In this document: positions 7,333-64,000 of the stretch, piece by piece
Layout: each line of letters begins with the position of its first letter
How positions within the stretch are numbered: the first letter of the stretch is position 1
Origin: an uncultured Gammaproteobacteria bacterium
GTDB lineage: Bacteria; Pseudomonadota; Gammaproteobacteria; GCA-001735895
Reading direction: 5' to 3'
Length of the DNA stretch: 64,000 bases
Assembly (NCBI GenBank): GCA_947260025.1
Contig: CAMYON010000002.1
Span: 3,714-67,713, forward strand
Made by a program: the position numbers and the translations under genes
The notes under the pieces: generated by a model
What the model was told of the DNA's origin: nothing
Database searches by the model: none
The model's input: the letters and a program-made list of their open reading frames with translations, nothing else

Positions 7333-7682
7333 AGATAGTCAACCTGGTAAGAATAATTAGCTGACCGATAGTGTGGTTAGTCGGGGTTGCCGATGCAAAA
7401 CAAATAAATTGATCACGTCAAAAGTAAAGCTAATAAGTAAATTTTATTTTTTACTTATCCTCATCAAATTAATTTATATCTAATTCATCCTCAAGGCGGG
7501 TCATCAGGCGATATTCAGAGGGTGCGGGGAGATTGATCTGGATAAGCTGACAGCGGATGCGAACCAGTCGAGTCCTATAAAATCCGGTCGAATTAACTGC
7601 AGATAATCCCCAGTCACTTGACCAACCGCAATTATGGGGACCCAAAACTGCGCTAGGCTGTCTTTTTCAGCGAAAAACGCCG
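7333..7682. promoter_or_regulatory. Divergent promoter region between soeA and ftsH-like
   Basis: 350 bp with no ORF, strongly AT-rich (taaattttattttttacttatcctcatcaaattaatttatatctaattcat). Sits between two divergently transcribed genes. Confidence 0.45.
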
Positions 7683-11015: not shown

Positions 11016-12860
11016 TCAACCGCTCTCCCGCTCGAGGTTGCAACATCCGGCTTCCAGTTCGTTCATCGATTGCGCATCGCTGGTGGTGAGTATACTGCCG
11101 GTGACCTCGTTGGGACGAAAACTGGTACAACCTTTCAGGCCCAGGCGGTAAGCCTGCTGGTAAATATCCTTGAAAGCATCGAACTCGTAATCGACCGGCA
11201 CGTTGATAGTCTTGGAAATGGCGCTGTCGACATAGGGTTGCAGGGCCGCCTGCATTTCGAGGTGTTGCCGCGGCGTCAGTGCAGGCGCGGTCACGAAGTA
11301 TCCGGGCAGTGCTTCATCGGGGTGGGATTGTCGCCACAGTCGCCAGGCATAATCGCTGGCATCATGCAGCTGATATTCTCCATCCGCGCCGCGGACCCGG
11401 CGTTGCGACTGGAACGCGAATACCGGTTCGATACCGCTGGAAACGTTATTGGCGAACAGGCTAATCGTGCCCGCGGGTGCGATCGCGATCAGGTGGCTGT
11501 TCCGAATGCCGTGATCGAGTATGCCCTGCTGGATGTCCTGCGGCAGGCCTTGCACGTAACGCGATGCGGCAAAGGCATCGCGGTCGTAAAACGGAAAAGC
11601 GCCACTGGCCTTTGCCAGCGTCACCGATTCGCGGTAGGCGCTATCCCGCATCAAACGCATGACCTGCGCCGCCAGTTCGCGGGCGGGCTCATCGGCATAG
11701 TGCAGACCCAGCATGATCAGGGTATCCGCGAGTCCGGTAATACCGAGACCAATGCGGCGCGTGCCCCGCGCCTGTTCAGCCTGCGAATCGAGCGGAAAGC
11801 GCGACAAATCGATGATGTGATTGAGCATGCGCAGCGCTATGCGAACCGTCGATTCCAGCGCGGCAAAGTCCAGCCTGGACGCACTCGTAAACGGAGACTG
11901 CACCAGGCGCGTCAGGTTAACCGAACCCAGGTTACAGGCGCCATAGGGTGGCAACGGAATTTCACCGCAGGGATTGGTGGCGCTGATGTTTTCGCGGTAA
12001 TACAGATTATTTTGCTGGTTGATGCGGTCAACGAAAAGCACCCCGGGCTCGGCCATATCGTAGGTGGCCCGCATGATACGCTGCCACAGCACGCGCGCGC
12101 CGACTTCCCTGATCACCACGCAGGGCACCACTTCACGGCTGCCGGACCAGCGACGCTGAATAATCTCACGGCCATCGGACCGCGCCAAATCACCGAAGGC
12201 GCTCGCCGGAAACACCAGCGGCCAGGGTAAATCGTCCTGTACCGCCTGCATGAAGTCATCGGTAACCAACACCGACAGGTTGAAATTGCGCAGTTCGCGC
12301 GGGTCCCGCTTGGCGTCGACGAAATCTTCGATATCCGGGTGATCGCAGCGCAGGGTAGCCATCATCGCGCCTCGACGGTAGGCGCTGGATACCAGCGTGG
12401 CGCACATGCTGTCCCAGACCCGCATAAACGATACCGGACCCGATGCCATGCTGCCCACACGCCTGGCAACACTGCCGGCCGGCCGTAGCGTGGAAAAATC
12501 GTAACCCACGCCGCCGCCCTGCTGCATGGTCAGCGTACCTTCCTTGAGGCTGTCACAGATACCCTCCATGGAATCCTCGATCCGACCCATGACGAAACAA
12601 TTGAACAGGGTGACGTCAAAATCAGTCCCGGTACCCGCCAGAATGCGTCCGCCGGGAAGAAAACTGAAATCGCTTAGAATCGAGTAAAAGCGCTCTCGCC
12701 AGCCGGCCTGATCGCTTGCTTCCTGGTTCGCGAGTGCATGTGCTACCCGCTGCCAGCTATCTTCTACCGATTGATCGACCGGATACCCCGCTTTCAGGTA
12801 GCAATAGCGGCTATTCCAGATCTGGCGGGAGATTTCGATCTCGAAGGGATCGGTTTTCAT
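11016..12860 (-). CDS. nrdJ: Adenosylcobalamin-dependent ribonucleoside-diphosphate reductase (class II RNR, monomeric NrdJ type)
   Basis: MKTDPFEIEISRQIW..., PCGEIPLPPYGACNLGSVNL active-site region, C-terminal CC redox pair. Start placed at the internal Met (12860). The 30 upstream codons in the ORF track are Arg-rich and non-homologous. Confidence 0.85.
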   Translation of the reverse strand: MKTDPFEIEISRQIWNSRYCYLKAGYPVDQSVEDSWQRVAHALANQEASDQAGWRERFYSILSDFSFLPGGRILAGTGTDFDVTLFNCFVMGRIEDSMEGICDSLKEGTLTMQQGGGVGYDFSTLRPAGSVARRVGSMASGPVSFMRVWDSMCATLVSSAYRRGAMMATLRCDHPDIEDFVDAKRDPRELRNFNLSVLVTDDFMQAVQDDLPWPLVFPASAFGDLARSDGREIIQRRWSGSREVVPCVVIREVGARVLWQRIMRATYDMAEPGVLFVDRINQQNNLYYRENISATNPCGEIPLPPYGACNLGSVNLTRLVQSPFTSASRLDFAALESTVRIALRMLNHIIDLSRFPLDSQAEQARGTRRIGLGITGLADTLIMLGLHYADEPARELAAQVMRLMRDSAYRESVTLAKASGAFPFYDRDAFAASRYVQGLPQDIQQGILDHGIRNSHLIAIAPAGTISLFANNVSSGIEPVFAFQSQRRVRGADGEYQLHDASDYAWRLWRQSHPDEALPGYFVTAPALTPRQHLEMQAALQPYVDSAISKTINVPVDYEFDAFKDIYQQAYRLGLKGCTSFRPNEVTGSILTTSDAQSMNELEAGCCNLERESG

Positions 12861-13320
12861 GCCACTTCCGCGCAGCGATGCCGGCTCAGCCTGGCGTTTG
12901 CGGCGCCACCGCGGAGCTCGTCGGGAGTGGGAATCGTCCAAAGCCCGCAACCTGATTGTTGCGGCTGGTCGAGCCTGCCCCTCCGGCGTGACGACAGCGG
13001 GTTACAGCAGCCGCGCGAACCGAAATGTCCGCGCGAGTAGTCGTAATGCCAGCCAGGTGTGCCGCTACTATTCTTCATCGATCCGATACCTCGATCGAGA
13101 ATAGCAAGACCGGGGGTACAAAACTTGATACATATCAGCTCGGCGCCTGGATCACTGCCAGCACGGAAGGCTTACAGTCCAGGTTGGCAGCCGCCTGACG
13201 ACGCCGGGTATGAGCCATTGAATTTTTTCGCGTTTAAGCGCTGAATTCGCTAACATTGCAACGCCGGCACAAGGACAACGATTCGAATTTTGCATTTTCC
13301 GCTTCCCAGGCCCCTTATAA

Positions 13321-20036: not shown

Positions 20037-20957
20037 ATGACTCAATCTAAGCCCAGCAAACTAGCCCAGGTACTGGCGGACGGCCACTTCGCGATTACGG
20101 CGGAAACCTCGCCCCCCGACGCGGCCTCGACGCAGGCGGTGATCGACCGGGTGGCCTGCCTCGAGGGTTTGGCGGACGCGGTCAACGTAACCGACGGCGC
20201 CAGCGCTCGCGTGCATATGTCGGCCTTTGCCACCGCCACGATTATGGTGCAGCAAGGTATCGAACCGGTACTGCAAATGACCACCCGCGATCGGAACCGC
20301 CTGGCACTGCAGGGGGATGTGGTTGGCGCGTCGGCGCTCGGTATTCATAACTTCCTGTGCCTCACCGGCGACAAGATGGCGGCCGGCGACCAACCGGAGG
20401 CGGCAGAAGTCTTCGAGCTCGATAGCGGCGAGTTGATGCGCCAGATGCGCGATATGCGAGATTCCGGGACTTTCCCGTCGGGGCGCCAGATCGATCCGCC
20501 GCCGTCACTGTTTCTGGGCGCCGCTGAAATGCCGGCCGAACCGGGCGACAACTGGCCGGCGGCGAGACTGCAGGCCAAGATCGACAACGGTACCCAGTTC
20601 TTTCAGACCCAGTACTGTTTCGAACTCGACAAGGTGAAACGTTACTGCGCTGCCCTGGTCGATGGCGGCTTTACCGAGCAGGCATATTTCCTGATAGGCA
20701 TCGGACCGCTGGCGTCGGCAAAATCGGCGCGCTGGATGAACGAAAACCTGTTCGGCGTGCACGTGCCGGACGCTATTATCGAACGCCTCGAGGGCGCCGA
20801 GGATCAGCGTGCCGAGGGGCGCGCGATCTGCGCCGAGCTGCTGCAGGGCTTTTCCGAGATCGAGGGTTGCGCCGGTGCCCACTTGATGGCGCCGCATGGC
20901 GAGGCTTCCTGCGCGCAGGTCATCGCGGAATCGGGCTTGCTCGGACTCAGGTCCTGA
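20037..20957 (+). CDS. Methylenetetrahydrofolate reductase family protein (MetF-like, divergent)
   Basis: ...HFAITAETSPP..., then the TTRDRN block and a C-terminal barrel. Overall MTHFR (PF02219) topology. Start at the internal Met (20037). Confidence 0.6.
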   Translation: MTQSKPSKLAQVLADGHFAITAETSPPDAASTQAVIDRVACLEGLADAVNVTDGASARVHMSAFATATIMVQQGIEPVLQMTTRDRNRLALQGDVVGASALGIHNFLCLTGDKMAAGDQPEAAEVFELDSGELMRQMRDMRDSGTFPSGRQIDPPPSLFLGAAEMPAEPGDNWPAARLQAKIDNGTQFFQTQYCFELDKVKRYCAALVDGGFTEQAYFLIGIGPLASAKSARWMNENLFGVHVPDAIIERLEGAEDQRAEGRAICAELLQGFSEIEGCAGAHLMAPHGEASCAQVIAESGLLGLRS

Positions 20958-23166
20958 CCAGGTTCAGAATGCTTCCCGAATCGGTCGATTCGACCGCACG
21001 CGCAACGATCCGGGCCTGCGTATAGCCCCGGGCCCGCAGTTGCTGCAGGCAATCCTGCGCGACTTCCGGAGCGACGCTCGCCAGCAGGCCGCCGGCGGTT
21101 TGCGGATCGAATATCAACGGGTAATGGTCATGCGTCGCGAGGCCGTGCTGATCGCCGATGCCGTGACGGATGCGCACATTCTGCGGCTTTAACGAGCTTT
21201 CGATACCGCGCCGCGAGAGCTCCACGGCACCAGGGTAAAGCGGCAATTGCTGCAGCAGAATTTCCACCCCGCAGCCGGAAGCGCGCGCCATTTCGCACAG
21301 GTGGCCAGCGAGACCGAAACCGGTTACGTCGGTGCAGGCGCTGGCGCCGAAGCTCCGCAGACAGGAAGCCGCCGCGCGACTCGAAACCAGCATCTGCTCG
21401 AGTGCCGCATCGATCCAGGCGGAGCGTGCCTGACCGCGCATTTCTCCCGCGAACAGCACGCCGCTGCCGAGCGCTTTGGTCAGAATCAGTAAATCGCCAG
21501 GGCGCATTCCGGATTTCAGCAACAACTCCTCCGGCCTCGCGAAACCGTTTACGCTGAGGCCGCAACTCATCTGGCTGGACTCGCCACTGTGGCCGCCGAC
21601 CAGCATCGTATTATGCTGGGCCAGCGTCTCGGCCACGCCCGACATCAGTTGATACAGGTCCTGTGCCTGCCTGGCCTCGCTGGCGAACACCACGTTGGCG
21701 ATCACCAGGGCGCTATGCGGGTCGACGCCCATGGCGAACAGATCTCCCAGGGCATGGTTGGCCGCGATACGTCCGAACAGGTACGGGTCATCGATGAAAC
21801 TGCGAAAATGATCGATCGACTGCACCAGTTCCAACCCCGCCGGCACCCGAATCAGGGCCGCGTCGTCGGCATGCTCGAAACCCGAATCACGGGTGGCCGC
21901 GTAACGATTGCCTATCTCGGCCAGCACCTGGTCGAGTATTTCGCTGCCGACTTTCGAACCACAACCGCCGCAGCGCATCGGCGCCAGGTCCTCGACCTCG
22001 TCGGTGGCTGGCTGCATTGCCGGCAACTCGGTAAAACGCCGCACGAATTTGCGATCGATCCTGTCCTTTAACCACCAGCACCAATTGCCCTGTAATGCCC
22101 AGGGACCGCGGCTGGCGACGGCGAAACGATCGCCGGTGGAAATCAACGACAGAAACTGCCGCTGCGGTTTGAATGGCCTGAGTTCCCGCCCGCGCAACCA
22201 ACGCTCCAGGTTTCGCGCCAGCGGCAGGCCCTGGCGCACCGCGAATACGCCCGACTTGGGCCGAGGGAATTCATTGACCGAGGCGATGTCACCGGCGGCG
22301 AACAGGTTTTGATGGGAAACGCTTTGCAAACAAGGCGTAACCTCGATAAAACCCCGTTCGTCGAGCTTCAAACCCGTTTCACGCAGCCAGCCCGCCGGGC
22401 TGGCCTGGGTAACCCAGATTGCGGCATCGGTGGCGATCGTGGCCGCATGATTTGCGCGTAATAATCCATCCTCGAAACAATCAACGCCAAAGCCGTAATG
22501 CACCGGGATAGACCGCTGCTCGAGGATGCGGCTGAACATTCGCCGGACGCGAGCGTTATGGCCGGGCAACAGTTGGGAGCGGTCGGTAACGATGCGCAGT
22601 TTGAGCCTGGCGCACGGCGGTTGCAACTGGCGCGCGCGATAATCCAGCGACAGTGCCAGTTCGACGCCCCCGGCTCCGCCACCGATAATTGCCAGGTTAA
22701 AATCCTCCTCGCTCTCGCGCAGGCGCCGTTCCAGCCGATCCCAGGATTCGATAAATCGATCGACCGGCTTGACCGCGAACTGAAGACTGTCGGTTTGCGC
22801 TAGCGGCGGGCTCGTCGGCCTCGAACCGATGTTGATCGACAGCAAGTCATAGTCGAGCTCCGGCCGGTTAGCGAATTGCACCCGACCGCGCTCGGCATCG
22901 AGCCCGCTCACCTCGTCGTGTATCACCCGCGCACCGGCATAGCGTGCCAGCGGCAACAGGTCGATATGAGCATCGTCGAATTTATAATGCCCGGCGATGA
23001 AACCGGGCAGCATCCCGGAATACGGCGTATGCAGATCGCGGCTGACCAGGGTCAGGCGGACACCAGGCACCGGGTTCATTGCGAAATACTTGAGCACGAA
23101 CAAATGGCTGTGCCCGCCCCCGATCAACACCAGGTCGGAGGTGACCGCTACTTCATTCTGTTGCAT
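20947..23166 (-). CDS. selD: Fusion of an FAD/NAD(P)-binding pyridine nucleotide-disulfide oxidoreductase domain to selenide, water dikinase (SelD, Cys form)
   Basis: N-terminal Rossmann motifs LVLIGGGHSH and LAIIGGGAGGVE. The C-terminal ~340 aa align with E. coli SelD (MRCGGCGSKVGS vs GAGCGCKISP; FGRIAANHALGDLFAMG vs FGRIAATNAISDIFAMG). Cys, not Sec, at the active site. Confidence 0.85.
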   Translation of the reverse strand: MQQNEVAVTSDLVLIGGGHSHLFVLKYFAMNPVPGVRLTLVSRDLHTPYSGMLPGFIAGHYKFDDAHIDLLPLARYAGARVIHDEVSGLDAERGRVQFANRPELDYDLLSINIGSRPTSPPLAQTDSLQFAVKPVDRFIESWDRLERRLRESEEDFNLAIIGGGAGGVELALSLDYRARQLQPPCARLKLRIVTDRSQLLPGHNARVRRMFSRILEQRSIPVHYGFGVDCFEDGLLRANHAATIATDAAIWVTQASPAGWLRETGLKLDERGFIEVTPCLQSVSHQNLFAAGDIASVNEFPRPKSGVFAVRQGLPLARNLERWLRGRELRPFKPQRQFLSLISTGDRFAVASRGPWALQGNWCWWLKDRIDRKFVRRFTELPAMQPATDEVEDLAPMRCGGCGSKVGSEILDQVLAEIGNRYAATRDSGFEHADDAALIRVPAGLELVQSIDHFRSFIDDPYLFGRIAANHALGDLFAMGVDPHSALVIANVVFASEARQAQDLYQLMSGVAETLAQHNTMLVGGHSGESSQMSCGLSVNGFARPEELLLKSGMRPGDLLILTKALGSGVLFAGEMRGQARSAWIDAALEQMLVSSRAAASCLRSFGASACTDVTGFGLAGHLCEMARASGCGVEILLQQLPLYPGAVELSRRGIESSLKPQNVRIRHGIGDQHGLATHDHYPLIFDPQTAGGLLASVAPEVAQDCLQQLRARGYTQARIVARAVESTDSGSILNLVRT

Positions 23167-37973: not shown

Positions 37974-40900
37974 CTACTGGTTTAAAAGTTTGCTGTACGC
38001 ATCATATTCCTTTTTCAGGCTGTTATCCATTTTTAAGGCCTGTTCATAGCTGCTCCTGGCCGCCTGCAGATCGCCTGCACTATAGTGCGCCATAGACAGA
38101 TTTATCCATATTCTGCCATCCTCGGGGTCGAGTTCGGCGGCCCGCGCATAGTTTTCGATTGCCCGCGCGTAATCTTTCTGCAAAAAGTACAGGTTACCGC
38201 GATTGCTCTTGACCGCACTGTCCTGGGGCGCCAGTTCATCCAGTGCATCGAAGGCCAGCTCCGCCTTTTCATACAGCCCATAACGTGCATAAAGAATACC
38301 TATTTGCAGCCGTGCGGCGATATTACTCGGATTATTGTCCACCATGGCCCGATAAGGCAGAATCAGGCGATCGATACTCTTCTGCAGCAGCAGGCCCTGC
38401 GCCTGTCGGACAAGACTCTCGGTGCGTCGCACCTCCGGCAATTCAATCGAATAGCTCGCCTTGCGCAGCGTTACCGGCTGGTAGGCTTGCCACGCCTGGT
38501 CCAGGCTGATTATCCCGAGTTCGCCAGTCTCGAGTGCGGCCTGATACTTGCGCGCGCCCTCGGCCCAGGCCTCGTTGAAATTCGTATTAACCATGGTAGC
38601 TTCCAGCGGTATCCACACCTTGCCATCGTTTATCACCAGCAGACTGTTGTCCTGGCTGATTAGATCAGCCTCCTGCTCGGCGAGGCCGGTATCGAACATC
38701 AGGAAAAGATGCCCCGGAACTTCAATGAAGGCGGTATTGATACCCAGGTTCTCGAGCCCGGCACTGATTAATACCGACAAATCATCGCAATCCCCGCTTT
38801 TGAGCCGCAGGGTTTCGCGTGGAAACTGCACGTAGTCGACCTGGTCATCGCGTAACTCGTTAAACGGGGTATTGGGATCAACAATGTAATTAATGCCGGA
38901 GGCGGTGAGACTGCTGAAGTACGCCATCGCCGCAACCAGCTTTTCGTTCAGCGGCCCAGGATCTGGTTGAAAGGCATTGACCACCTGGCGCACGTAATCC
39001 CTGAGCGTGTCATCTTTCGGCGTCACGAACGAACCGATCATTTCCGCGTCACCCCAAACGATCGCATTCTTACCGTAAACCGTCATCGGCTGGGTCAAGG
39101 TAATGTCATCCTTTTGCCCATCACGCTGATAGGTCAACCTGACTTCGACCTGAACCCCCGTGTCTTCGTCGACCTCGAGAATTCGGTTGTTGAAAGTGGC
39201 GTTTATCGGGATTTCCCGGGTTTCCTTACCCTCGATTACGGCAATATCGACCGCCGTTGGAAAGTCCATAAACTCCTTGATCTGGAAGGATAGTTTCAGG
39301 TTACCGTAGTCGGTGGCGCTGACGTTACGCAAGTTGACGCTGCCGATTGGCCGGTCCTGGTACTTTTTGTAAGCGGCCGAAAAAACCGTGTCCAGATTCA
39401 GGTCGGAAAGCAACAACTGGGGAGCGTTGTTCTTGAATTCGAGCGATTTCTTGCGTTCCGCGAAAGCAACGTTCAGGATCGCGCGATTCTGCTCCGAAGG
39501 ATCGAGTTCTACCGCTTGCTCGAACTCCGCAACCGCGGCGTCGAACATACGCCGCTTGGCATAAAGGTTTCCGAGCGCAACATGCGGTTCCGCCCATTGC
39601 GGCCGAATCGCGGCCGCCCGCTCCAGGTGATCGCTAGACGCATCGAACAGGTTTGCATCCTGATAGACGCGCCCGATTCGATACTGCAAATCGGCAGAAG
39701 TGGAATCGACACTGATCGCCGTCTTGAGAAACTCGATCGCGGAGCCAACCTTGCCCTGTTGATTGGCAATATCTGCCTGTAGCACCAGTACGTCGATATC
39801 CTCGGGGGCGATCCTGGAGGCCGCCTCGGCATGAATCGAGGCAGAACGGTAGTTGCGGGTGGCAAACAGGCTACGAGCGTAGCGCTTGCGTTCATTCAGC
39901 GATTGCGGCTGCAGTGTAACGGCCGTCTCGAGATAGACGTTGGCGTCTCGGTAGCTTTCGCGCTCGAGTTCAATCTTGCCCGCGAGCGCATACAGCTCGA
40001 ATGCATCGGGATTTTGTTGAATGCCCTGGGCCAGCGATTTTACAGCTTCGGCGGGCTGTTTCATTTCAACGAAGGAGCGCGCCAGGGACAGCCATGCGTC
40101 GATCACTTCGGGACTATCCTTGACAACTCGCGTCAGACGCAAGACCGCCTCTTTGTGCCTGCCCTGCTTGGCGGCAATTTTACCGAGCAGGTAGTAGCCT
40201 TCGCTCCGGGTTTCCTTGCCACCGGACAACTCGACCGCTACCGACCTGGCCTCCTCGTCGCGGTTAAGATGCAGCAGCGAGCGTGCCTTTCCGACCGCGG
40301 CGGCGCCCAAATCCGGCCGCATTCCGGAGACCGCCGCATAGTGCCCCAACGCCTCCTCGTAATTACCCATGTTGTATAGATCCTGTGCAATCCTGAGCCT
40401 GATCCTGAAATCATCGGGATGGCGCTCGACTATCGCCTGGTAAGTAAGCAGACCGTCGTCGACGATACCTGCTTCGATATAGGCCCTACCCAGCAGGTAT
40501 CGCAGTTCGACATTTTCCGGGTACGCGACGAGACCATCCTCGGCGCAGGTAACCGCTCCGAGAGCATCCGCCAGGTTTAAACTCGACCGGGCACAGATCA
40601 AAAACGGCTCCACTTCGGACGGCTCCTGTTCCAGCACTTCATCGATTAGCGCTCGAGCCTCGAGAAATTGCCCCAGCTCATAATGCGCCCGCACCTGATA
40701 AAGAATCGCCTTGTCATGATATATCTCCGAATCCGCAAGTCGCCTGAACTCGCCGAGCGCTCGCGTATAATTTTTTAACTGGTAGAGACTCATGCCCAGT
40801 AAATCGCGCACATCGGCGTTGTCCGGTTCGAGTCGAAGCATCTTGTCAGCCAGGTTGACCACGTCGGCGAATTCATTGCTTTCGTAAAGTCCGGTAATCG

Positions 40901-42953
40901 TCTGAAAATGGTTCTGCTTCGGCAGCGATGGTGCAGCACGCAGTCCGTGAGCGCTCACCGATACGACTCTGAACCACCTGTACTCGCCGGCGTCATCGAC
41001 CGACAGCGTCTGCCCCAGCGACGAGCTCGTGGAAATGGTCTCGAACGGGCCATCCCTGTTCCTGGCAGCCTCGACTTCATACTTTTCGATAAGCGGAGAT
41101 TTACTGCTGCTCCATGCCAGGTTGATCTGATCTCTGTTGGCAGAGATATTCAGGCCAAACGCTGAATCCGGATACTCCAGCAGGTCGAAACGAAAATACT
41201 TCTGACGTTCGCTGTCGTTGACATAAATACTGTTCTTTGCGCCGGAAGATACCGAAATCGATGTCGCTTTTTCGAGATACGCCAGGGTTCCATTCTTACC
41301 CGCGGAGCCGAAGGCGCGGTAAGGTTCGAAATTGCTGAACACCTGAACCCAGTAATCGTTGAAATCCGAGGCTGCCAATACATAGAGCCGGTCCTGCAGA
41401 TCAATATCCAGTCCGTAGAAACGGGTGAACTCATGCAGTGATTTTCCCTTGATACCGATGGCAGCGATTTTTTTGCGATCCTTGTTGATCACCTGAATCA
41501 CTCCGCCCGCGCCCCGGTCTGCAATGTAAAGATTCTCTTCGCTATCCAGGGCGATGGGCCCTACTTCGACGAATAGTTGTTCGCCGTCTCGTTGTTGATT
41601 GATCTCTTCCAGAAACTGCCCATCACTCGAAAAAACCTGGATCCTGTTATTACCCTTGTCGGTAACATAATATTTGCCATGACTTACGAAAACATCGCTG
41701 GGATTCTGAAATCCGGCGGCAGAAGTTCCATAGCGGCCTATCGTAAAAAGCTTGCTACCGTCGAGGGAAAAAGCATGTAACCTGTTTTTGTCGAGTATTG
41801 CCACCGATTGCGCGCCAACGTGAATCGCCTGCGGCTTTTTCGCCTCCTCGGCGAACCTGCCGGTCTCTTTGCCGTCGGCTCCGAGTATGACAATTCCCTG
41901 GTTGTCAGGTCTTATGCAAAGGACCCGGCCTTCGGTAAAAACGGTCATCGCCACGCAGGGTGCATCGTAAGCAGCACCGAATTCAAGCAAATCGATCGCC
42001 ACGGGAGTGGCAAAACCGGTCTGGTCCAGCTGTAAAACCTCTACCTTCTTGTTCCTGGTATCCAGAATCGCTAGCTGGCCGTTGGTATTGACAGACAATT
42101 GGCTAATATCGAGAAAACGCGTGCGCGATTGCCCCAACCCGCCAAACTCTCCAAACACCTGTCGCGTTCGCCAGTCGAAAAACACGACCCGTTTGCTGAC
42201 AGCATCGCCAAGGTAAAGATTTCCGTCCAGATCGGTGGTCAGTGCGCTGAACTCCGGCGTTTCGCCAAAGAACTCCGTTAATTCTTGCGCCGTAACACGC
42301 TCGATCAGATTCCCCTGCCGGTTAAAAACGGATATACGGGTCGGGCCCTCGAGCACATAAATATTCTCGTCGGCATCGATACTGATATGGGTGGGCTTGA
42401 GGAGATCCGTTTTTCTGTTGCCATTCCTGCCAATACTGCGCAAAAAAAGCCCCTGGTAATTAAATACGCTGATCTGCTTGTTATTGACGTCGCCCAGGTA
42501 AATCTTTCTGTTGGACGAGACCGCAACCGCTTTCGGATCATTGAGTTCGCCCGGAGAGCTTCCGGATTGCGAAAACCGTGTCACCAGCTCTAACGCCGGA
42601 TCCAGTATCACAACCTCTCCGGAGCCTTCGTTTACGACGACCAGGTTACCGTTGGGTAGTATATCGACACCGCCGAGACTGGAGTCATCGAAAATGGAGG
42701 GTAACAGACTGATTGCTTCGATACTGCCGTCGACGATTCTTAACAGCGTACCCTGTTCTTCGCTGGTGACATAAACCACGCCATCGTCGCTTATTTTTAT
42801 ACCGCTGGCGTCCTCCATGATCCGGGCATAGTCACCAGCCTCGATAAATTGAAGAATTTCGATCGCCCGCGCCTGGGCCGACAAGCCTGTTAGAACAAGG
42901 ACGATTAATATCCGGAGACAATACTTTTGCGCTTTCATGACCTCGTTCCGCAA
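37974..42953 (-). CDS. Giant secreted multidomain protein: signal peptide, NHL-repeat beta-propellers, FN3 domain, ~10 TPR repeats, transglutaminase-like cysteine protease core, C-terminal TPRs
   Basis: 1,659 aa. N-terminal signal peptide. Repeated NHL-like blades (YVTDKGNNRIQVFSSDGQF, LYIADRGAGGVIQVINKD, LAILDTRNKKVEVL). Transglutaminase-like catalytic region SGDCDDLSVLISAGLENLGINTAFIEVPGHLFLMFD, with Cys, His and Asp spaced as in TGase/BTLCP cores. Long TPR arrays before and after. By eye, the gene has lower GC (~50-53%) than its flanks. Confidence 0.7.
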   Translation of the reverse strand: MRNEVMKAQKYCLRILIVLVLTGLSAQARAIEILQFIEAGDYARIMEDASGIKISDDGVVYVTSEEQGTLLRIVDGSIEAISLLPSIFDDSSLGGVDILPNGNLVVVNEGSGEVVILDPALELVTRFSQSGSSPGELNDPKAVAVSSNRKIYLGDVNNKQISVFNYQGLFLRSIGRNGNRKTDLLKPTHISIDADENIYVLEGPTRISVFNRQGNLIERVTAQELTEFFGETPEFSALTTDLDGNLYLGDAVSKRVVFFDWRTRQVFGEFGGLGQSRTRFLDISQLSVNTNGQLAILDTRNKKVEVLQLDQTGFATPVAIDLLEFGAAYDAPCVAMTVFTEGRVLCIRPDNQGIVILGADGKETGRFAEEAKKPQAIHVGAQSVAILDKNRLHAFSLDGSKLFTIGRYGTSAAGFQNPSDVFVSHGKYYVTDKGNNRIQVFSSDGQFLEEINQQRDGEQLFVEVGPIALDSEENLYIADRGAGGVIQVINKDRKKIAAIGIKGKSLHEFTRFYGLDIDLQDRLYVLAASDFNDYWVQVFSNFEPYRAFGSAGKNGTLAYLEKATSISVSSGAKNSIYVNDSERQKYFRFDLLEYPDSAFGLNISANRDQINLAWSSSKSPLIEKYEVEAARNRDGPFETISTSSSLGQTLSVDDAGEYRWFRVVSVSAHGLRAAPSLPKQNHFQTITGLYESNEFADVVNLADKMLRLEPDNADVRDLLGMSLYQLKNYTRALGEFRRLADSEIYHDKAILYQVRAHYELGQFLEARALIDEVLEQEPSEVEPFLICARSSLNLADALGAVTCAEDGLVAYPENVELRYLLGRAYIEAGIVDDGLLTYQAIVERHPDDFRIRLRIAQDLYNMGNYEEALGHYAAVSGMRPDLGAAAVGKARSLLHLNRDEEARSVAVELSGGKETRSEGYYLLGKIAAKQGRHKEAVLRLTRVVKDSPEVIDAWLSLARSFVEMKQPAEAVKSLAQGIQQNPDAFELYALAGKIELERESYRDANVYLETAVTLQPQSLNERKRYARSLFATRNYRSASIHAEAASRIAPEDIDVLVLQADIANQQGKVGSAIEFLKTAISVDSTSADLQYRIGRVYQDANLFDASSDHLERAAAIRPQWAEPHVALGNLYAKRRMFDAAVAEFEQAVELDPSEQNRAILNVAFAERKKSLEFKNNAPQLLLSDLNLDTVFSAAYKKYQDRPIGSVNLRNVSATDYGNLKLSFQIKEFMDFPTAVDIAVIEGKETREIPINATFNNRILEVDEDTGVQVEVRLTYQRDGQKDDITLTQPMTVYGKNAIVWGDAEMIGSFVTPKDDTLRDYVRQVVNAFQPDPGPLNEKLVAAMAYFSSLTASGINYIVDPNTPFNELRDDQVDYVQFPRETLRLKSGDCDDLSVLISAGLENLGINTAFIEVPGHLFLMFDTGLAEQEADLISQDNSLLVINDGKVWIPLEATMVNTNFNEAWAEGARKYQAALETGELGIISLDQAWQAYQPVTLRKASYSIELPEVRRTESLVRQAQGLLLQKSIDRLILPYRAMVDNNPSNIAARLQIGILYARYGLYEKAELAFDALDELAPQDSAVKSNRGNLYFLQKDYARAIENYARAAELDPEDGRIWINLSMAHYSAGDLQAARSSYEQALKMDNSLKKEYDAYSKLLNQ

Positions 42954-54699: not shown

Positions 54700-55863
54700 T
54701 TAGTCCTTAGTAGCGTCCTTCTTGGTAGCGGCCTTCTTGGTCGCCGCCTTCTTGGTGGCTGCTTTCTTGGTCGCCGCCTTCTTGGTCGCTGCTTTCTTGG
54801 TCGCCGACTTCTTGGTAGCGGCCTTCTTGGTAGCGGCCTTCTTGGTCGCCGTCTTCTTGGTGGCTGCTTTCTTAGCTGCAGGCTCCTCCTCGGCCACGGG
54901 CTCTGCCGCTGCTGTAGAGTCATCCTTTGCACCTTCATCAACGTCAGCATCAGCCGCGGCTGGCGTAGCTGCCTCTTCGACCGCCGCACTCTGCGCAGGC
55001 GCTTCTGCAGGTGCTTCCTCTGCAGCTGCCGGCTCCTCTGCAGCCGCTGGTTCAGCTTCGGCTTGCGCCGCTGTTGCCGGTGTTTTCTTGGCGCTTACCT
55101 TGACCGCAGGCCTGGCTGCAACTGTTTCTGCATCCTCTTCGATTTCGATCAACTCGTCGTCGCTATCGGCCCCGGCAACGATACTTTGCTTACCTTCGAC
55201 AACGGCGTCGGCCACCAGCCGGGCATAAAGTTTAATAGCGCGCATCGAATCATCGTTGCCGGGTACGATGTACTCGACATTATCCGGGGAGTTGTTGGTG
55301 TCGACGATACCGACCACTGGAATGCCGAGCTTGGCGGCTTCCTGGACCGCGATCTTTTCGTATCCCACGTCGATTACGAACAGCACGTCAGGCAGACCAT
55401 TCATTTCCTTGATGCCGCCGAGTGTCTTCTCGAGCTTTTCCTGTTCGCGTGACAGCTGCAGTATTTCCTTTTTATTGATCTTTTCGTAGCTATTACTGGC
55501 GGCCATCTCTTCAAGCTCCTTGAGACGCTTGATCGACGCGCGTACGGTCCGAAAATTGGTCAGCATACCGCCCAGCCAACGGTGGTTGACAAACGGCATA
55601 CCGCAACGCTCGGCTTCCTCTTTGACCGCATCGCTAGCGGCACGCTTGGTGCCGACAAACATGATTTTGCCTTTCTTGGATGCGACCTTGCCGAGGTAAT
55701 TCACCGCGTCCTTGCACAGCGGCATGGTTTGCTCGAGGTTGATGATGTGGATCTTGTTGCGCTCGCCAAAAATGAAGGGCGCCATTTTAGGGTTCCAGAA
55801 ACGGGTTTGGTGACCGAAATGCACGCCCGCTTCCAACATTTCACGCATGGTGACGTTAGACAT
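54700..55863 (-). CDS. rpsB: 30S ribosomal protein S2 with a ~140-aa low-complexity C-terminal extension (acidic Ala/Glu/Pro block, then basic (AATKK)n repeats)
   Basis: The first ~245 aa are a canonical S2 ([27 protein letters not shown]...). The tail is ...[18 protein letters not shown]... then [22 protein letters not shown]... about 11 times. Start at the internal Met with a GGAGA ribosome-binding site. Confidence 0.9.
54705..54878. repeat. 15-bp tandem repeat (~11 units, consensus cttcttggtMgcSgc) encoding the (AATKK)n tail of rpsB
   Basis: Direct reading of 54705-54878: ...ccttcttggtagcggccttcttggtcgccgccttcttggtggctgctttcttggtcgccgcc... Confidence 0.85.
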
Positions 55864-56109
55864 AGTATCTCCAGATGTCTGTTGAACAGCCTGTTTGCGG
55901 CTATCCTGGGTTAAGCCTCCACATACCCGACGCTCACGACCTGCTGTCTCTGGTAAAACGCAGGCACCCATGAACGCGTTGCGGCATGTGTGTGTCGTTA
56001 GGGAACACCGAAAATTGCGATGCCCCGATTAATTTGCCCCTGCAGTTGCCGAGGGCGCGCGCTTTATACCATAATCCCGTATTCTCAACAACCAGCCAGC
56101 AGTAGTTTT

Positions 56110-59540: not shown

Positions 59541-61124
59541 ATGCCCTCTTCCCTGGGTAATCCATTCCAGCAGGCGCTGGACGGCGAAAACAACGCGATT
59601 CAGTTCGATGTCGCCTACCCGGTTCACGGCAGCCTGGCCAGCGCCGTGGCGGAATTGCGTCAAATCCATGGGCAGGATATCTACCTGTTGCCGATGTCCG
59701 GCACTTCCTGCGGCGGGGGCATATTCCAGGCGCCTGGTCCCAGCCATCCGCCAGGCACGGTAATCGGGCTCAGATTCGATCCGCCGGCGGTTCCGCGGGT
59801 CACGCTCGACACCGCGCCGAAGCTGGCCGACCTGGAGCTCGACCAAATCGTCATCGACCTGCAGACACAGCAGGTGGCAGCCGGTGCTGCCATCACGCTG
59901 GGACAGCTGAACCAGGCGCTGGCGCAGCAACTGGGACACAATTTCAAGGTCCCGGGTGCCGATCTGACCAGCTACCTGTATGCGGCGGTAGGGGCCACCT
60001 TCATGACTGGCGGTATGGGCCCGCAGCGTCGTTATTTTAGCGACAGCGTGGTCGGGGCCGCGATATTCGATGGCGATGCAGTCTGCAACATTATCGGCGA
60101 GGATCTGCAGGGCTACGCCGGCAGCTACGGCTGGAGCGGTATAGTCACCGCGGTGCGCTGTGCCTACTACCGCTTCCCGGATAATGAAGTGGCCTTCGCG
60201 CTGCCGGTCTCCAACCATCCCGACGATATTGCCCGGCTGCTGGACCGACTGTCGGCGTATTGCTATCTCGAGCTGGATCGAAACGGGGCCAGCTCCGCCG
60301 CCAATCAGGACGACCTGATTCTCGGGCTCGAGCATGTCAGCACCAGCTCGATGCGCCCGCTGCTGCGCGCCGTCGGTAAAAATCCGATGGCCGCACGGGC
60401 ACAGGACCTGCAACAAAAATGTGACGCTGCCAACGCCGACGGCCTGATCTTCGTCAACGGCTTCAGCCAGCGCTCGATCGACGAGTTTCTAACCGACATC
60501 TGCGACGAGCATCCGGCCGGCGAATTCACCATCGCGGGAGTTGCACTGGAACACGCCGAGGTTTTTACCGACCCGGAAGAAATGCGGGCGCTGCGCGAGG
60601 CCATACCCTACGAGGCCCGCATGCAAACACCCGGCGGCCGGCTGGTTTACAAAAACCACAGCGATGCAAACATTCGGATCGGCGCGGATGCGGTCTTTCG
60701 CAGCGTGCAGCAAATCTGGCATATCAACCGTGACTACGTTGACACGGTCGAAGGCTACTTCGACACCAACCCGGACATCGATGGCGAAATCCTGGTTTAC
60801 GGCCATCTCAATCCCTACGGCATCGACCCGCATAACCGGGTTACGATTAGCAGCGACGACGAGGCAGCGTTCGAGCGCGCCCGTGAATTCCTGCTAGAGC
60901 AGCGCGCGCGCTACTACCGGGGCCTCGAAACGCTGTGCCAAACCGGCGACGCGGTTTTCATCGGCGGTGAAAAAGCCGCCGATTCGGAAATTGCTATCTT
61001 CGAGGCGCTCGGCGGACCCCATCAATCACCGCCTGCCCTGTTTCGGCGATTCCAGCAGCAGCAGGCGACCATCGGCGCTGCGGCGCCAATGCTCAACTGG
61101 CGCGCGCTCCAGCCTTATCGCTGA
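59541..61124 (+). CDS. Hypothetical protein with a divergent FAD-binding PCMH-type (FAD-linked oxidase-like) N-terminal region
   Basis: PMSGTSCGGG...VTLDTAPKLADLELDQIVIDLQTQQVAAGAAITLGQLNQAL parallels the GlcD/FAD_binding_4 GGGTxxxGG...VTLGELNRAL blocks. The remainder has no recognisable family. Confidence 0.4.
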   Translation: MPSSLGNPFQQALDGENNAIQFDVAYPVHGSLASAVAELRQIHGQDIYLLPMSGTSCGGGIFQAPGPSHPPGTVIGLRFDPPAVPRVTLDTAPKLADLELDQIVIDLQTQQVAAGAAITLGQLNQALAQQLGHNFKVPGADLTSYLYAAVGATFMTGGMGPQRRYFSDSVVGAAIFDGDAVCNIIGEDLQGYAGSYGWSGIVTAVRCAYYRFPDNEVAFALPVSNHPDDIARLLDRLSAYCYLELDRNGASSAANQDDLILGLEHVSTSSMRPLLRAVGKNPMAARAQDLQQKCDAANADGLIFVNGFSQRSIDEFLTDICDEHPAGEFTIAGVALEHAEVFTDPEEMRALREAIPYEARMQTPGGRLVYKNHSDANIRIGADAVFRSVQQIWHINRDYVDTVEGYFDTNPDIDGEILVYGHLNPYGIDPHNRVTISSDDEAAFERAREFLLEQRARYYRGLETLCQTGDAVFIGGEKAADSEIAIFEALGGPHQSPPALFRRFQQQQATIGAAAPMLNWRALQPYR

Positions 61125-61182: not shown

Positions 61183-62934
61183 TCAGGATTTAAACTCCAG
61201 CAGCCGGGTCAAGGCCGGTAACGCCGCTGCGGGGTGCATGCCCAGGGCCTTGAGTTCGTCAAGCACGGGAACCGGCAGCGCCTGGGTCTCGATCTTCTGG
61301 TTCAAAACACCGCCCATAATCACCGGCACCGACAATTGCGCCTCGTCGAGCTGCCGTCTTAACTGCTGTGCGTACTCGAGCGCCATACCGTTATGGGTAC
61401 TGAGCAGCAGGACATCGGCGGGATTGTTGCGCAAGGCTGCAACCAGGTCGCCGGGATCCTGCTCGGCACCGAGGTAGACGACTTTCGCCTCGGTTTCCCC
61501 GAGCAGCTGTGCCAGGGCACCGGCCGCATGTTCATGCACGTCGCTGGAAGCGATCAAGAAACATTTATCCTTGACGCGGTCACGTAAACCCGGGGCGGCG
61601 AACAGCGGACGATGCTCGTCGATGACCTGCTGTGACATGTGGTAGATATCGGTACCGGTGGCGGCGTTGGCGTCGAGTTCCGATGCAAACAAGCGTTCGA
61701 AGCGCTGTGCGCCCATTTTCTTGAGCACGAATAGCATTTGTAACGGGTTGGCGGTATCGACGCCAACATCGCGCAAACCATCGAGCGCCCGGTGGTAGAT
61801 TTCGTTGCCCTGCCGGCAAACCTCGTCGGCGAAGCTCTGCGCCGCGGAGAAATCAACATGCGGGTAAAGCCGGCGCGCGCTTGCTTCCACCCGCCTCCCG
61901 AATAGCTGCGCCTCGATAATTTCCTCGGCAGAAGGAATCCGAATCGCCTCGGTGACCGGTAACGGCAACACCGCGTGACCGCTGGGCGCGTGCATCTGGA
62001 TCAGGATATCCCACAACAGGTACTCCGCGGTCAACGCCCGGTTCTGCTCGAATTCATGACCGAAAGAAATCGTATCCCCGTAGATCATCGAGCCCACCTG
62101 CTGGCCCTGGTGGATTCGATGCAGTGCCAGCACCCAGCCCGCTCGCTTCACCGGATCGCTGGTCAGTCCACCGATACAGTGGCTCAGGCGTGCACCGATC
62201 AACTCCTCTACGATGTAGCGTTCCAGCATCGCCCAGGCCGCGACGGTAGCGCAGTGTCGAAACAGGGCTCCATAGCCGTCTTCGAGGTAGGAATGCAGCA
62301 TCGTGCCACGGTCGCGTAATGCGCCCATTATCGCCATGGCCTGGTAAGTCTGCGCCGCGGTTTCCGCGGCATCGGACCAGCCCGGCGCCTCGAAAGTAAA
62401 ATACTGCGACAGGTTACCGATCGTGGTGCAGCCGATGCGCAGCGCCTGCAGGGTGTTGGCGACCGAAGCCGGCTGGCCGATCATGAAGTCGCCCAGGTGC
62501 GGCTGTATCGGCGCCGCTTGCGCCAGCGCGTCCCAGTCATACTGCCGCGTTAACATCGGCCCGGTCTCGGCCGCCGCCGCGGCTCGCCTGTCCGCCGGCA
62601 GACCCATGCGGCGATCGATTGCGAACCCGGCACGATCGAGGTAGTACTCCCGGTTGCCCAGCTCGTGATGAATCTTGCGCAGCGCGGCAGCGGTCGTATC
62701 GATGTCGTTCATGCCAATATGGGCGTGGTACATGATCCGGCCGTCTCGCATTGCCTGCCGCTTGTATTCCAGTTCTGACGCGATACCGAATTTATGCAGA
62801 AATGCAGATTGCCCGATGCTAACCTGTCCCGCCAGCTCGACGGCCTCGGCGCGTAGTTGATTGAAATCAGGTAACCGGGTTTGCAGCAGCGGCCGCAGCG
62901 ATTCGATAGTCTGCGACATCGCTTCAGCGGTCAA
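61183..62934 (-). CDS. Cobalamin (B12)-binding domain protein, mutase-like: large N-terminal domain fused to a C-terminal Rossmann-type B12-binding domain
   Basis: The C-terminal ~130 aa (KDKCFLIASSDVHEHAAGALAQLLG...VLLLSTHNGMA...VPVIMGGVL) resemble the DxHxxG B12-binding domains of MCM/GlmS with a one-residue insertion. The N-terminal ~430 aa are unassigned. Its start overlaps the upstream beta-CA by 11 bp. Confidence 0.5.
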   Translation of the reverse strand: MTAEAMSQTIESLRPLLQTRLPDFNQLRAEAVELAGQVSIGQSAFLHKFGIASELEYKRQAMRDGRIMYHAHIGMNDIDTTAAALRKIHHELGNREYYLDRAGFAIDRRMGLPADRRAAAAAETGPMLTRQYDWDALAQAAPIQPHLGDFMIGQPASVANTLQALRIGCTTIGNLSQYFTFEAPGWSDAAETAAQTYQAMAIMGALRDRGTMLHSYLEDGYGALFRHCATVAAWAMLERYIVEELIGARLSHCIGGLTSDPVKRAGWVLALHRIHQGQQVGSMIYGDTISFGHEFEQNRALTAEYLLWDILIQMHAPSGHAVLPLPVTEAIRIPSAEEIIEAQLFGRRVEASARRLYPHVDFSAAQSFADEVCRQGNEIYHRALDGLRDVGVDTANPLQMLFVLKKMGAQRFERLFASELDANAATGTDIYHMSQQVIDEHRPLFAAPGLRDRVKDKCFLIASSDVHEHAAGALAQLLGETEAKVVYLGAEQDPGDLVAALRNNPADVLLLSTHNGMALEYAQQLRRQLDEAQLSVPVIMGGVLNQKIETQALPVPVLDELKALGMHPAAALPALTRLLEFKS

Positions 62935-63544
62935 AATCGAAAAAGTCCACGCTGCCGGTTTCGAGCGAATACTCGGCGCCGACCACCCGCAACTGGTCCC
63001 TGGCGATCAGCTTTTCCAGAATTTCCGAGCCATGCCGTAACTGGTTGGCCGAGACCCGGATGTTGGCACGCACCGCCTGTTCCACCAGCTGTTCGGAATC
63101 GAGCTGCAGGCCGGCGTCGAGCAGGGACTGCACCGAGGGCCGAATGCGATCGACAATCGATCTCAGGTTCGGCGAACGGTTCTCGCTCGGGCGCTCCAGT
63201 TGTTCGAGGGTTGCCTGGATGGCGCCGCAGCCGGAGTGGCCCAGCACGACCACCAGCGGCGTGCCGAAGCGCTCGACCGCGAATTCGACGCTGCCAACCT
63301 GTGACGGCGCGATGATATTGCCGGCAACCCGGATCACGAACAGGTCGCCGAGACCCTGGTCGAAAACGATTTCAGCCGGCACCCGCGCATCGGAACAACC
63401 GATAATAATGGCGAACGGTTCCTGGCGCGGTACCAGGCGGTAGCGGCGCGCGGCTTCCGATTGCAGGGCCTGGTCCTGGACCTCGGCCACGAACCGGCGG
63501 TTACCCTCGAGCAAGGCGTCCAGCGCCTGTTGTGCAGTCCTCAC
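62924..63544 (-). CDS. Beta-class carbonic anhydrase
   Basis: Zinc ligands in IIGCSDARVP and GHSGCGA. 206 aa. Confidence 0.88.
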   Translation of the reverse strand: MRTAQQALDALLEGNRRFVAEVQDQALQSEAARRYRLVPRQEPFAIIIGCSDARVPAEIVFDQGLGDLFVIRVAGNIIAPSQVGSVEFAVERFGTPLVVVLGHSGCGAIQATLEQLERPSENRSPNLRSIVDRIRPSVQSLLDAGLQLDSEQLVEQAVRANIRVSANQLRHGSEILEKLIARDQLRVVGAEYSLETGSVDFFDFDR

Positions 63545-63584: not shown

Positions 63585-63944
63585 TCATTTCGATTTATCC
63601 GACCACACGGCGAACTCGTTGCCGCTGGGCTCGCAAAAATGGAACCGGCGCCCGCCCGGAAAAACAAATATCGGCTTCTCGATGCGTCCCCCGGCACGTT
63701 CTATTTTTAGCAGTGTGGCTTCCAGGTCCGCGCTGTAGAATACCAGCAGCGCGGAGCCGTTGCGCGTGCTCGAGTAGAGTTCGGAGCGATAGAAACCGCC
63801 ATCCAGACCCTGTTTCGAAAAGGCGCAGTAGTCAGGGCCAAATTCTTCGAAACTCCAGCCGAATACCTCGCTAAAAAATGCACGCGTGGTTTCGATGTTG
63901 GCAGCCGGGTACTCGACGTAATCCAGTTTTTCATGCTCGCTCAT
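63585..63944 (-). CDS. VOC family (glyoxalase/bleomycin-resistance fold) protein
   Basis: 119 aa, ...IETTRAFFSEVFGWSF...GGRIEKP... Two beta-alpha-beta-beta-beta modules typical of VOC proteins. Confidence 0.7.
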   Translation of the reverse strand: MSEHEKLDYVEYPAANIETTRAFFSEVFGWSFEEFGPDYCAFSKQGLDGGFYRSELYSSTRNGSALLVFYSADLEATLLKIERAGGRIEKPIFVFPGGRRFHFCEPSGNEFAVWSDKSK

Positions 63945-64000
63945 GTCGCTGCTCCTGCCTCGGGTTTGATCCAGACCGCGGTATCGTGAAAAATGGCGCC

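Follow-up and report, generated by a model that had tools for sequence, protein, structure and literature searches.

A probable adenosylcobalamin-dependent isomerase of a widespread, uncharacterised family, encoded beside an incidental beta-carbonic anhydrase in an uncultured gammaproteobacterium

We analysed 64,000 nucleotides of DNA from an uncultured Gammaproteobacteria bacterium (assembly GCA_947260025.1, contig CAMYON010000002.1, positions 3,714 to 67,713 of the forward strand), hereafter the window, in which a gene for a cobalamin (B12)-binding, mutase-like protein lies directly downstream of a gene for a beta-carbonic anhydrase (CA). A first-pass annotation, made from the letters alone, had described two open reading frames (ORFs) of 583 and 206 amino acids (aa) overlapping by 11 bp. 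Both ORFs are present, at 61183..62934(-) and 62924..63544(-), and the former, read from a TTG at 62932..62934(-), is the longest ORF for the B12 protein. This upstream TTG is probably not used, because it is replaced by TAC in the two closest CA-bearing orthologues (L011 and L029, 93% and 94% identical) and because nearly all homologues are 578 aa long. The sole possible start in L011 and L029 is the ATG equivalent to 62919. On the basis of the ORF, the homologue lengths and the orthologue starts, we placed the gene for a single chain of 578 aa at 61183..62919(-), with a conserved ATG at 62917-62919 and the stop at 61183-61185. The CA/B12 junction, which reads ...cgcTGAagcgATGtcg..., is thus most likely TGA-agcg-ATG, with a gap of 4 nt between the CA stop (TGA, 62924-62926) and the B12 start, and the 11-bp overlap arises from taking the longest ORF. 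In L002 and L003, a real ATG start occupies the position equivalent to the window TTG and gives a true 11-nt overlap; the junction reads GTGA in L004 and L024 and TGAATG in L038, and the spacing ranges from -11 to +4 nt across every CA-bearing orthologue. Tight coupling of the two genes therefore holds in all CA-bearing loci, although the overlap from which the first-pass annotation had concluded co-expression hinges on a doubtful start codon.

The 206-aa product was correctly recognised from the outset as a beta-CA. Its gene (62924..63544(-)) begins with a GTG after the Shine-Dalgarno sequence GGGGGAGG, the protein matches the Pfam family Pro_CA (E=1.2e-40), and the zinc site is complete, comprising C50-S-D-A-R54 (63383-63397) and H103-S-G-C106 (63227-63238), so that both the profile and the motifs place it among the beta-CAs. 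Judging from these features, the CA is a genuine and probably active enzyme. Its gene is likely co-transcribed and translationally coupled with the B12 gene.

The C-terminal part of the 578-aa protein, aa 451-578 (61186..61569(-)), is a Rossmann-type B12-binding domain. It matched PF02310 (B12-binding) with 40.7 bits against a cutoff of 32.1 over aa 459-539, as did all 32 diverse members of its family that were searched, and the family profile aligned to the B12 domains of the Protein Data Bank (PDB) entry 2yxb and of GlmS, MetH, IcmF and methylmalonyl-CoA mutase (MCM), with E values from 8e-17 (2yxb) to 1e-6. Among the NCBIfam models, GlmS was the best match for this domain. The base-off/His-on motif DVHEHA (61525..61542(-)) contains D460 and H462 (578-aa numbering), which are invariant in the alignment used for the locus search across genomes (A2) and at least 90% conserved in the most diverse family alignment (A1), and the downstream GG motif, G536-G537, is invariant in the family. 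The window protein therefore carries the Asp, the Co-ligating His and the GG motif of base-off/His-on binding. Across the family, the consensus at the motif is STDxHExG, in its fuller form STDxHExGxxxxxxxL. A helical linker of 65 aa (aa 386-450, 61570..61764(-)), modelled with helices at 392-402, 404-411, 424-441 and 443-449, joins this domain to the N-terminal part.

The N-terminal catalytic domain, aa 1-385 (61765..62919(-)), is predicted to consist of a short helical lead-in followed by alternating beta/alpha elements of the TIM-barrel type. An AlphaFold2 model of the whole protein, built on 35 sequences, had a predicted local distance difference test (pLDDT) score of 92.1 and a predicted TM-score of 0.92, and runs from an N-terminal domain of alternating beta/alpha elements through a helical linker to a Rossmann domain. 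The predicted barrel packs against the cobalamin side of the B12 domain much as in MCM and glutamate mutase, in keeping with the adenosylcobalamin (AdoCbl) isomerase superfamily. When the model was compared with the PDB using Foldseek, the top matches were AdoCbl isomerases (MCM alpha, OraE, GlmE and KamD), at 10-14% identity. Closed MCM (4req_A) matched over the whole chain (E=2.7e-11; query TM-score, TMq, 0.59), and glutamate mutase epsilon (GlmE, 1cb7_B) was the best single-domain fold match (405 columns, root-mean-square deviation 5.1 A, target TM-score, TMt, 0.56); ornithine 4,5-aminomutase OraE (3kow) and the lysine 5,6-aminomutase alpha subunit KamD (1xrs_A) were also matched. The fit was closer for closed MCM conformers (TMq 0.5-0.59) than for MMUT in which the B12 domain is displaced (8gju, TMq 0.36), suggesting that the domain arrangement in the model is of the catalytic type.

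At the level of sequence, the N-terminal ~430 aa matched no family in Pfam, NCBIfam or the PDB (phmmer and hmmsearch for the latter). No mutase barrel was matched even weakly when the 32 diverse members were searched against Pfam at E<=10, and the Pfam aminomutase barrel families gave no match among them. A profile comparison of A1 with genuine GlmE from E. coli O157:H7 using hhalign was null (probability 0.8%), neither the window protein nor the family profile had a sequence match to 1cb7_B, PF01642 (MM_CoA_mutase) was not matched, and the PDB sequence matches to MCM were limited to the B12 domain (profile positions 441-582). FIST_N was considered for the N-terminal domain and dismissed, since it reached 19.8 bits, below its cutoff, in two of the 32 members. 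Many polar residues of the barrel are invariant across the family alignments, and the invariant positions of the protein include R112, D144, D214, D222, E233, T283, N293, E324 and E408. These results bear out the first-pass annotation on the B12 protein. It had described a cobalamin-binding, mutase-like protein of unassigned family, with a Rossmann-type domain carrying a near-canonical DxHxxG motif and an N-terminal domain resembling neither MCM, glutamate mutase E nor the aminomutases, and it had proposed profile searches and structure prediction as checks. The C-terminal region scores as B12-binding, the whole-chain fold matches AdoCbl isomerases, and the confidently modelled barrel is of the AdoCbl-isomerase type while belonging to no sequence family.

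The protein is a member of a large, widespread and uncharacterised single-chain family that probably falls within the AdoCbl-isomerase superfamily; the superfamily is known, and what is new is the sequence family of the barrel. An exhaustive search with the N-terminal domain returned 377 clusters at 50% identity, including full-length relatives of 580-600 aa down to ~23% identity, and 316 GTDB species representatives encode a relative. Among the hosts are Gammaproteobacteria, Desulfobacterales, Alphaproteobacteria isolates, Synergistota, Chloroflexota, Aminicenantes, KSB3, Actinobacteria and Clostridia. Aerobic marine Proteobacteria and Desulfobacterales are rich in members, and cultured hosts include Sulfitobacter sp. 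F26204, Maritalea porphyrae and Rhizobium setariae. Public names stop at the B12 domain ('cobalamin-dependent protein', 'methylmalonyl-CoA mutase cobalamin-binding subunit' or 'hypothetical'), and one member was named 'methanogenic corrinoid protein MtbC1' by JGI. We found no description of the family in the literature on B12-dependent dehydration of hydroxyproline, on AdoCbl together with ProC, on newly reported AdoCbl enzymes, on GlmL or on 2-methyleneglutarate mutase.

We compared gene neighbourhoods at 93 de-duplicated loci, 38 of which belong to the clade of the window (gammaproteobacterial, at least 60% identity) and 55 of which lie elsewhere. The dominant partner across phyla is ProC, encoded within 400 bp in 34 of the 48 loci at 45-60% identity; the neighbouring ProC passes TIGR00112 (202 against 196.75 bits) and is of the bona fide pyrroline-5-carboxylate (P5C) reductase type. 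In 13 loci there is a gene for an AIG2/GGACT-like protein. The operon of Alphaproteobacteria isolates and Oceanospirillales contains Dpp-type ATP-binding cassette (ABC) permeases and ATPases, an M20 amidohydrolase, ProC and the AIG2-like gene, with a divergent GntR/FCD regulator. Class-III aminotransferases (Aminotran_3), an Orn/Lys/Arg decarboxylase (OKR_DC_1), enolase-superfamily and DHDPS-family genes, short-chain dehydrogenases/reductases, amino-acid transporters and a 2-oxoacid dehydrogenase complex are further recurrent neighbours. Neither a MeaB-type G-protein chaperone nor acyl-CoA metabolism genes recur nearby.

Accessory genes of the GlmL type were found in several branches. In Synergistaceae and in a Clostridia branch, a hydantoinase-A/MutL-like gene of 670-680 aa lies directly downstream (L068, L069, L081, L086 and L094), and two members with 36-38% identity (L006 and L007) have an adjacent true GlmL homologue, which passes TIGR01319 (278 against 204 bits) and shares 31% identity with GlmL of E. 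coli (E=1e-53). Two further members appear to be fused, one of 857 aa (P0144) to a C-terminal MutL/GlmL domain and one of 608 aa (P0215) to an N-terminal hydantoinase-A region (Hydant_A_N); these may be true fusions or gene-calling read-throughs. For glutamate mutase, GlmL/MutL has been described as a reactivation chaperone (PMC4682846). A Clostridia contig (L094, also L095) encodes two paralogues of 584 and 585 aa in one cluster (1238-2992 and 6903-8660), together with two class-III aminotransferases, a hydantoinase-A/MutL-like gene, an Orn/Lys/Arg decarboxylase, an aldehyde dehydrogenase, a Na+/solute symporter and a sigma-54 activator; this cluster is a promising system for substrate identification.

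We propose that the 578-aa protein is a single-chain AdoCbl-dependent isomerase of the mutase or eliminase type and that the CA is incidental to it, a reading to which we assign a probability of about 0.7. In such an enzyme, AdoCbl would be bound base-off/His-on under the substrate-binding barrel, which would cap the upper corrin face, and substrate binding would trigger homolysis of the Co-C bond. The 5'-deoxyadenosyl radical would take a hydrogen from the substrate, a 1,2-shift would take place, with or without a subsequent elimination, and the hydrogen would be given back. The GlmL- or hydantoinase-A-type accessory protein, of the ATPase fold and adjacent or fused in some lineages, probably repairs or reloads the cofactor. 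The substrate is probably a small amino-acid-derived molecule and not a CoA ester, because the barrel is GlmE-sized and because ProC, class-III aminotransferases, AIG2/GGCT-like proteins, the M20 amidohydrolase, amino-acid and peptide transporters and GntR/FCD regulators recur as neighbours.

Several observations weigh against this proposal. The canonical Gly of DxHxxG is Ala in the window protein and its close relatives, with Gly in the wider family, and the SxL motif of the window protein reads S-T-H. The profile of the B12 domain also aligns well to methyltransferase corrinoid domains, the pre-Rossmann helix included. The 80 genome loci, taken as the best-scoring of 316, are biased towards closer relatives. 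ProC, GlmL and GGCT neighbours are absent from the window clade and none was found in the 64-kb window, so that the amino-acid context is transferred from homologues at 50-57% identity or less.

The family shares features with several known B12 systems. Like glutamate mutase (GlmE plus GlmS), a non-CoA, small-molecule AdoCbl mutase, it combines a predicted TIM barrel of ~400-480 aa with a Rossmann B12 domain bearing DxHxxG, and some of its members have a GlmL-family gene next to them or fused to them; unlike glutamate mutase, it carries barrel and B12 domain in one chain, shows no sequence similarity to GlmE and has no methylaspartate ammonia-lyase or mesaconase context. The MCM family (MCM, ICM, IcmF and HCM) shares the single chain, in which the barrel precedes the B12 domain, and provides the best whole-chain Foldseek matches. 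However, identity is 10-14%, PF01642 is missing, the barrel falls ~150-200 aa short of the MCM substrate domain and linker combined, and the G-protein chaperone and acyl-CoA genes do not recur. The aminomutases OraSE and KamDE resemble the family in fold (3kow and 1xrs) and in a context of amino-acid or omega-amine catabolism, and ornithine degradation has an accessory family, 'Or-4', that is related to GlmL. In ornithine aminomutase, the lysine that binds pyridoxal 5'-phosphate (PLP) lies ~11 residues after the His of the B12 domain. Unlike these enzymes, the family has no Pfam aminomutase barrel and no conserved Lys ~11 residues after the His in its alignment, although PLP could bind elsewhere.

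As to the reaction, we tentatively consider an undescribed AdoCbl-dependent rearrangement or elimination of an amino-acid-derived substrate, which in most lineages would yield a P5C-type cyclic imine for reduction by the adjacent ProC; this more specific proposal is possible but stands well short of even odds. HypD, the glycyl-radical trans-4-hydroxy-L-proline dehydratase, is encoded by a gene that adjoins proC (P5C reductase), and in the ProC-linked majority of the present family the gene for a putative radical enzyme likewise lies beside proC. The resemblance is a functional analogy and serves as a lead only; unlike HypD, the family has an entirely different fold and cofactor, and the ProC neighbour is absent from the window clade. 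One speculative candidate by this analogy is a B12-dependent enzyme that would tolerate oxygen and dehydrate 4-hydroxyproline as its glycyl-radical counterpart does; another is a new omega-amino-acid mutase.

The main alternative, which we regard as unlikely, is a corrinoid methyltransferase-type enzyme cycling between Co(I) and methyl-Co(III), with a TIM barrel and a corrinoid domain as in MetH or MtaB-MtaC. The family profile aligns to MetH, MtaC, MtmC and others from the pre-Rossmann helix onward (E 1e-12 to 1e-7), Foldseek matched the folate-plus-cobalamin modules of MetH (9cbq, TMq 0.42), and the JGI name of one member would fit this assignment. However, the whole-chain fits to AdoCbl isomerases are better (TMq 0.5-0.59), and none of the 32 members matched the B12-binding_2 cap (PF02607), even at E<=10; the modelled helical linker is also shorter than this four-helix cap. 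Moreover, the accessory proteins are of the GlmL/hydantoinase-A type and not reductive activases of the RamA/RACo type, and no partner methyltransferase or folate-related gene recurs near family members.

It is very unlikely, in our assessment, that the family is simply the known but structurally unsolved 2-methyleneglutarate mutase (Mgm) or a fused glutamate mutase and has hence been characterised already. In Eubacterium barkeri, Mgm is a single chain of ~614 aa that ends in a B12 domain and has a MutL-like neighbour; the two agree in length class, in single-chain barrel-plus-B12 architecture and in that neighbour. GlmE is also the best single-domain structural match, and GlmL homologues adjoin some members. 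Against this, neither Pfam nor hhalign revealed sequence similarity to GlmE, and no nicotinate-fermentation or methylaspartate ammonia-lyase genes were found near any of the ~95 loci, the comparison with Mgm being one of gene context and architecture. In addition, aminotransferases and a decarboxylase surround the gene in the most divergent branch, of Clostridia type, the family abounds in aerobic marine Proteobacteria and Desulfobacterales, and no member is named 2-methyleneglutarate mutase in any source.

The bearing of the CA on the B12 enzyme was assessed from the organisation of the locus. Gene order and spacing point to an operon of a molybdopterin oxidoreductase, a VOC/glyoxalase-fold protein, the beta-CA and, last, the B12 enzyme. 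The window contains the 3' end of the molybdopterin oxidoreductase gene (63941..64000(-)), comprising the last 19 codons and the stop of a ~700-aa protein; its translation, GAIFHDTAVWIKPEAGAAT*, is identical to the C-terminus of the corresponding protein of L011, and Pfam Molybdopterin and Molydop_binding domains were matched in the genes of L001, L002 and L004. The TGA of the molybdoenzyme overlaps the ATG of the VOC gene as ATGA, and the VOC gene (63585..63944(-), 119 aa; PF00903, E=2e-9), which lies upstream in 25 of the 38 clade loci, stands 40 nt before the CA gene.

The first-pass annotation had suggested that the CA and the B12 enzyme are functionally coupled in a bicarbonate-dependent or carboxylation-linked B12 reaction, and had advised a search for conserved CA-B12 pairs in other genomes. 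That search went against the suggestion in the way the annotation itself had anticipated, since the adjacency is sporadic and confined to one clade. A CA lies between the VOC and B12 genes in eight of the 38 window-clade loci and adjoins the B12 gene in none of the 55 loci outside, so the pair is not kept across lineages of the B12 gene. These eight, counted by tblastn, include two damaged copies, in L015 a 5' remnant of 211 nt (1107-1319; 80% nucleotide identity, E=8e-52) that retains the first 71 codons within a 264-nt spacer, and in L002 a copy split across two frames. A figure of 14 loci obtained from a neighbour cluster (c14) was discarded, because alternative-frame ORFs across the VOC gene had raised it, and tblastn gave the corrected count. 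In ~17 clade species, the VOC gene lies directly upstream of the B12 gene with a spacer of 20-125 nt, and in L019 (7305-8001) and L030 (7297-7956) the slot between the two holds an unrelated, predicted membrane protein of ~200 aa with the motif YWFYRHW.

The distribution of the CA is also patchy on a neighbour-joining tree of the B12 proteins, in which the window and L011 (with CA) are sister to L012 and L013 (without), and L002 and L003 (with CA) group with L039 (without); the B12 proteins of CA-less sister species are 82-83% identical. In L039, ~18 nt of the CA 3' end may persist just upstream of the B12 start (~7967-7984), although this match is weak (E=0.002). The traces in L015 and L039 look like footprints of independent CA deletions, and the simplest history suggested by these sequences is that the CA was ancestral in the window clade and was then deleted repeatedly. 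The VOC/B12 position behaves as a variable cargo slot, given that the membrane protein replaces the CA in L019 and L030. Because the slot is variable and the CA was lost repeatedly in sister lineages, the B12 enzyme works without the CA, which is a dispensable passenger and an accident of gene order in one clade.

A functional pair, in which the CA would supply bicarbonate or CO2 for a B12 rearrangement that depends on bicarbonate or is linked to carboxylation, is accordingly very improbable. The intact zinc site, the tight spacing in all CA-bearing loci and the similar divergence of the two proteins across the clade (67-96% identity for CA, 68-94% for B12), which suggests long vertical co-inheritance, do speak for it. 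However, a coupling to bicarbonate is unsupported because the B12 gene persists without the CA, even in species with closely similar B12 proteins, because the CA is found as a deletion remnant, as a frame-split copy or replaced by an unrelated protein, and because no carboxylase, biotin or ATP-grasp gene lies nearby. To our knowledge, no AdoCbl isomerase uses bicarbonate. As for the CA serving an Fdh-like molybdoenzyme instead, the ~700-aa molybdopterin oxidoreductase reaches no NCBIfam equivalog cutoff and also occurs in CA-less loci. Least probable of all is a non-catalytic B12-binding protein, whether a sensor, a store or a decayed enzyme, for although the motif has Ala for Gly and neither an accessory protein nor an adenosyltransferase is encoded nearby in the window genome, the family is strongly conserved across phyla with invariant polar barrel residues, is embedded in catabolic operons and has no DNA-binding or signalling domain.

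The constant neighbours of the B12 gene in the window clade are the VOC gene, the molybdoenzyme gene and a gene for a 527-aa protein (59541..61124(+)), which is adjacent in 25 of the 38 clade loci and, as a clade-restricted neighbour, always convergent with the B12 gene. Its family comprises 336 proteins, all from metagenome-assembled genomes of uncultured Gammaproteobacteria, and has no passing Pfam match, PF01565 being matched weakly. The AlphaFold2 model (pLDDT 87.6) gave D-2-hydroxyglutarate and D-lactate dehydrogenases as top Foldseek matches (E ~1e-16, 13-15% identity), and by this model the protein is a divergent flavoprotein of the VAO/PCMH fold resembling D-2-hydroxyacid dehydrogenases. 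On this predicted fold, the 527-aa gene was rejected as a hidden GlmL-type reactivase. Given this neighbour, a hydroxy- or amino-dicarboxylate mutase is a speculative candidate for the window clade. Linkage to neighbours within the clade is weakly informative, because all of its loci are syntenic with glnD-map-rpsB-tsf.

Elsewhere in the window, the first-pass annotation was right about nrdJ. The gene at 11016-12950(-) encodes a class II AdoCbl-dependent ribonucleotide reductase that passes TIGR02504 (563 bits; cutoff 400) and is a further AdoCbl client, the second in this genome. A search for a B12 riboswitch, another of the proposed checks, found none in the 64-kb window. In a 739-aa protein (20947-23166(-)), a pyridine-nucleotide-disulfide oxidoreductase domain is fused to selenophosphate synthetase SelD; the protein passes the cutoffs of TIGR03169 and TIGR00476, and selenium use is therefore implied. 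Ribosomal protein S2 (54700-55971(-)) has a longest ORF of 423 aa with a long Ala/Glu/Pro/Lys-rich C-terminal tail ending in about ten KKAATKK-type repeats; because a t44 RNA (rpsB leader, RF00127, 54.7 bits; 55910-56012(-)) overlaps the 5' end of this ORF, translation of rpsB probably begins further downstream than the ATG of the longest ORF. The window also encodes a 1659-aa protein in which NHL/beta-propeller repeats precede a very long array of TPRs (37974-42953(-)) and a 957-aa PhsA/Fdh-like molybdopterin oxidoreductase (4459-7332(-)), which is distinct from the ~700-aa protein heading the operon and reaches no NCBIfam equivalog cutoff.

About a dozen AdoCbl-dependent isomerases and eliminases are known, and their barrels fall into a few sequence families. 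The barrel of the present family, which is large, conserved and spread over many phyla, escapes every curated model. Cultured hosts and clear operon partners (ProC, GlmL-type proteins, AIG2-like proteins and peptide-type ABC transporters) make its function directly testable. If the proposed undescribed rearrangement or elimination is correct, this would be the first new barrel family of AdoCbl isomerases in many years, widespread in marine Proteobacteria, Desulfobacterales, Synergistota and Chloroflexota. With this family, amino-acid catabolism in marine and anaerobic settings would gain a step that requires B12, and estimates of environmental cobalamin demand would gain it too.

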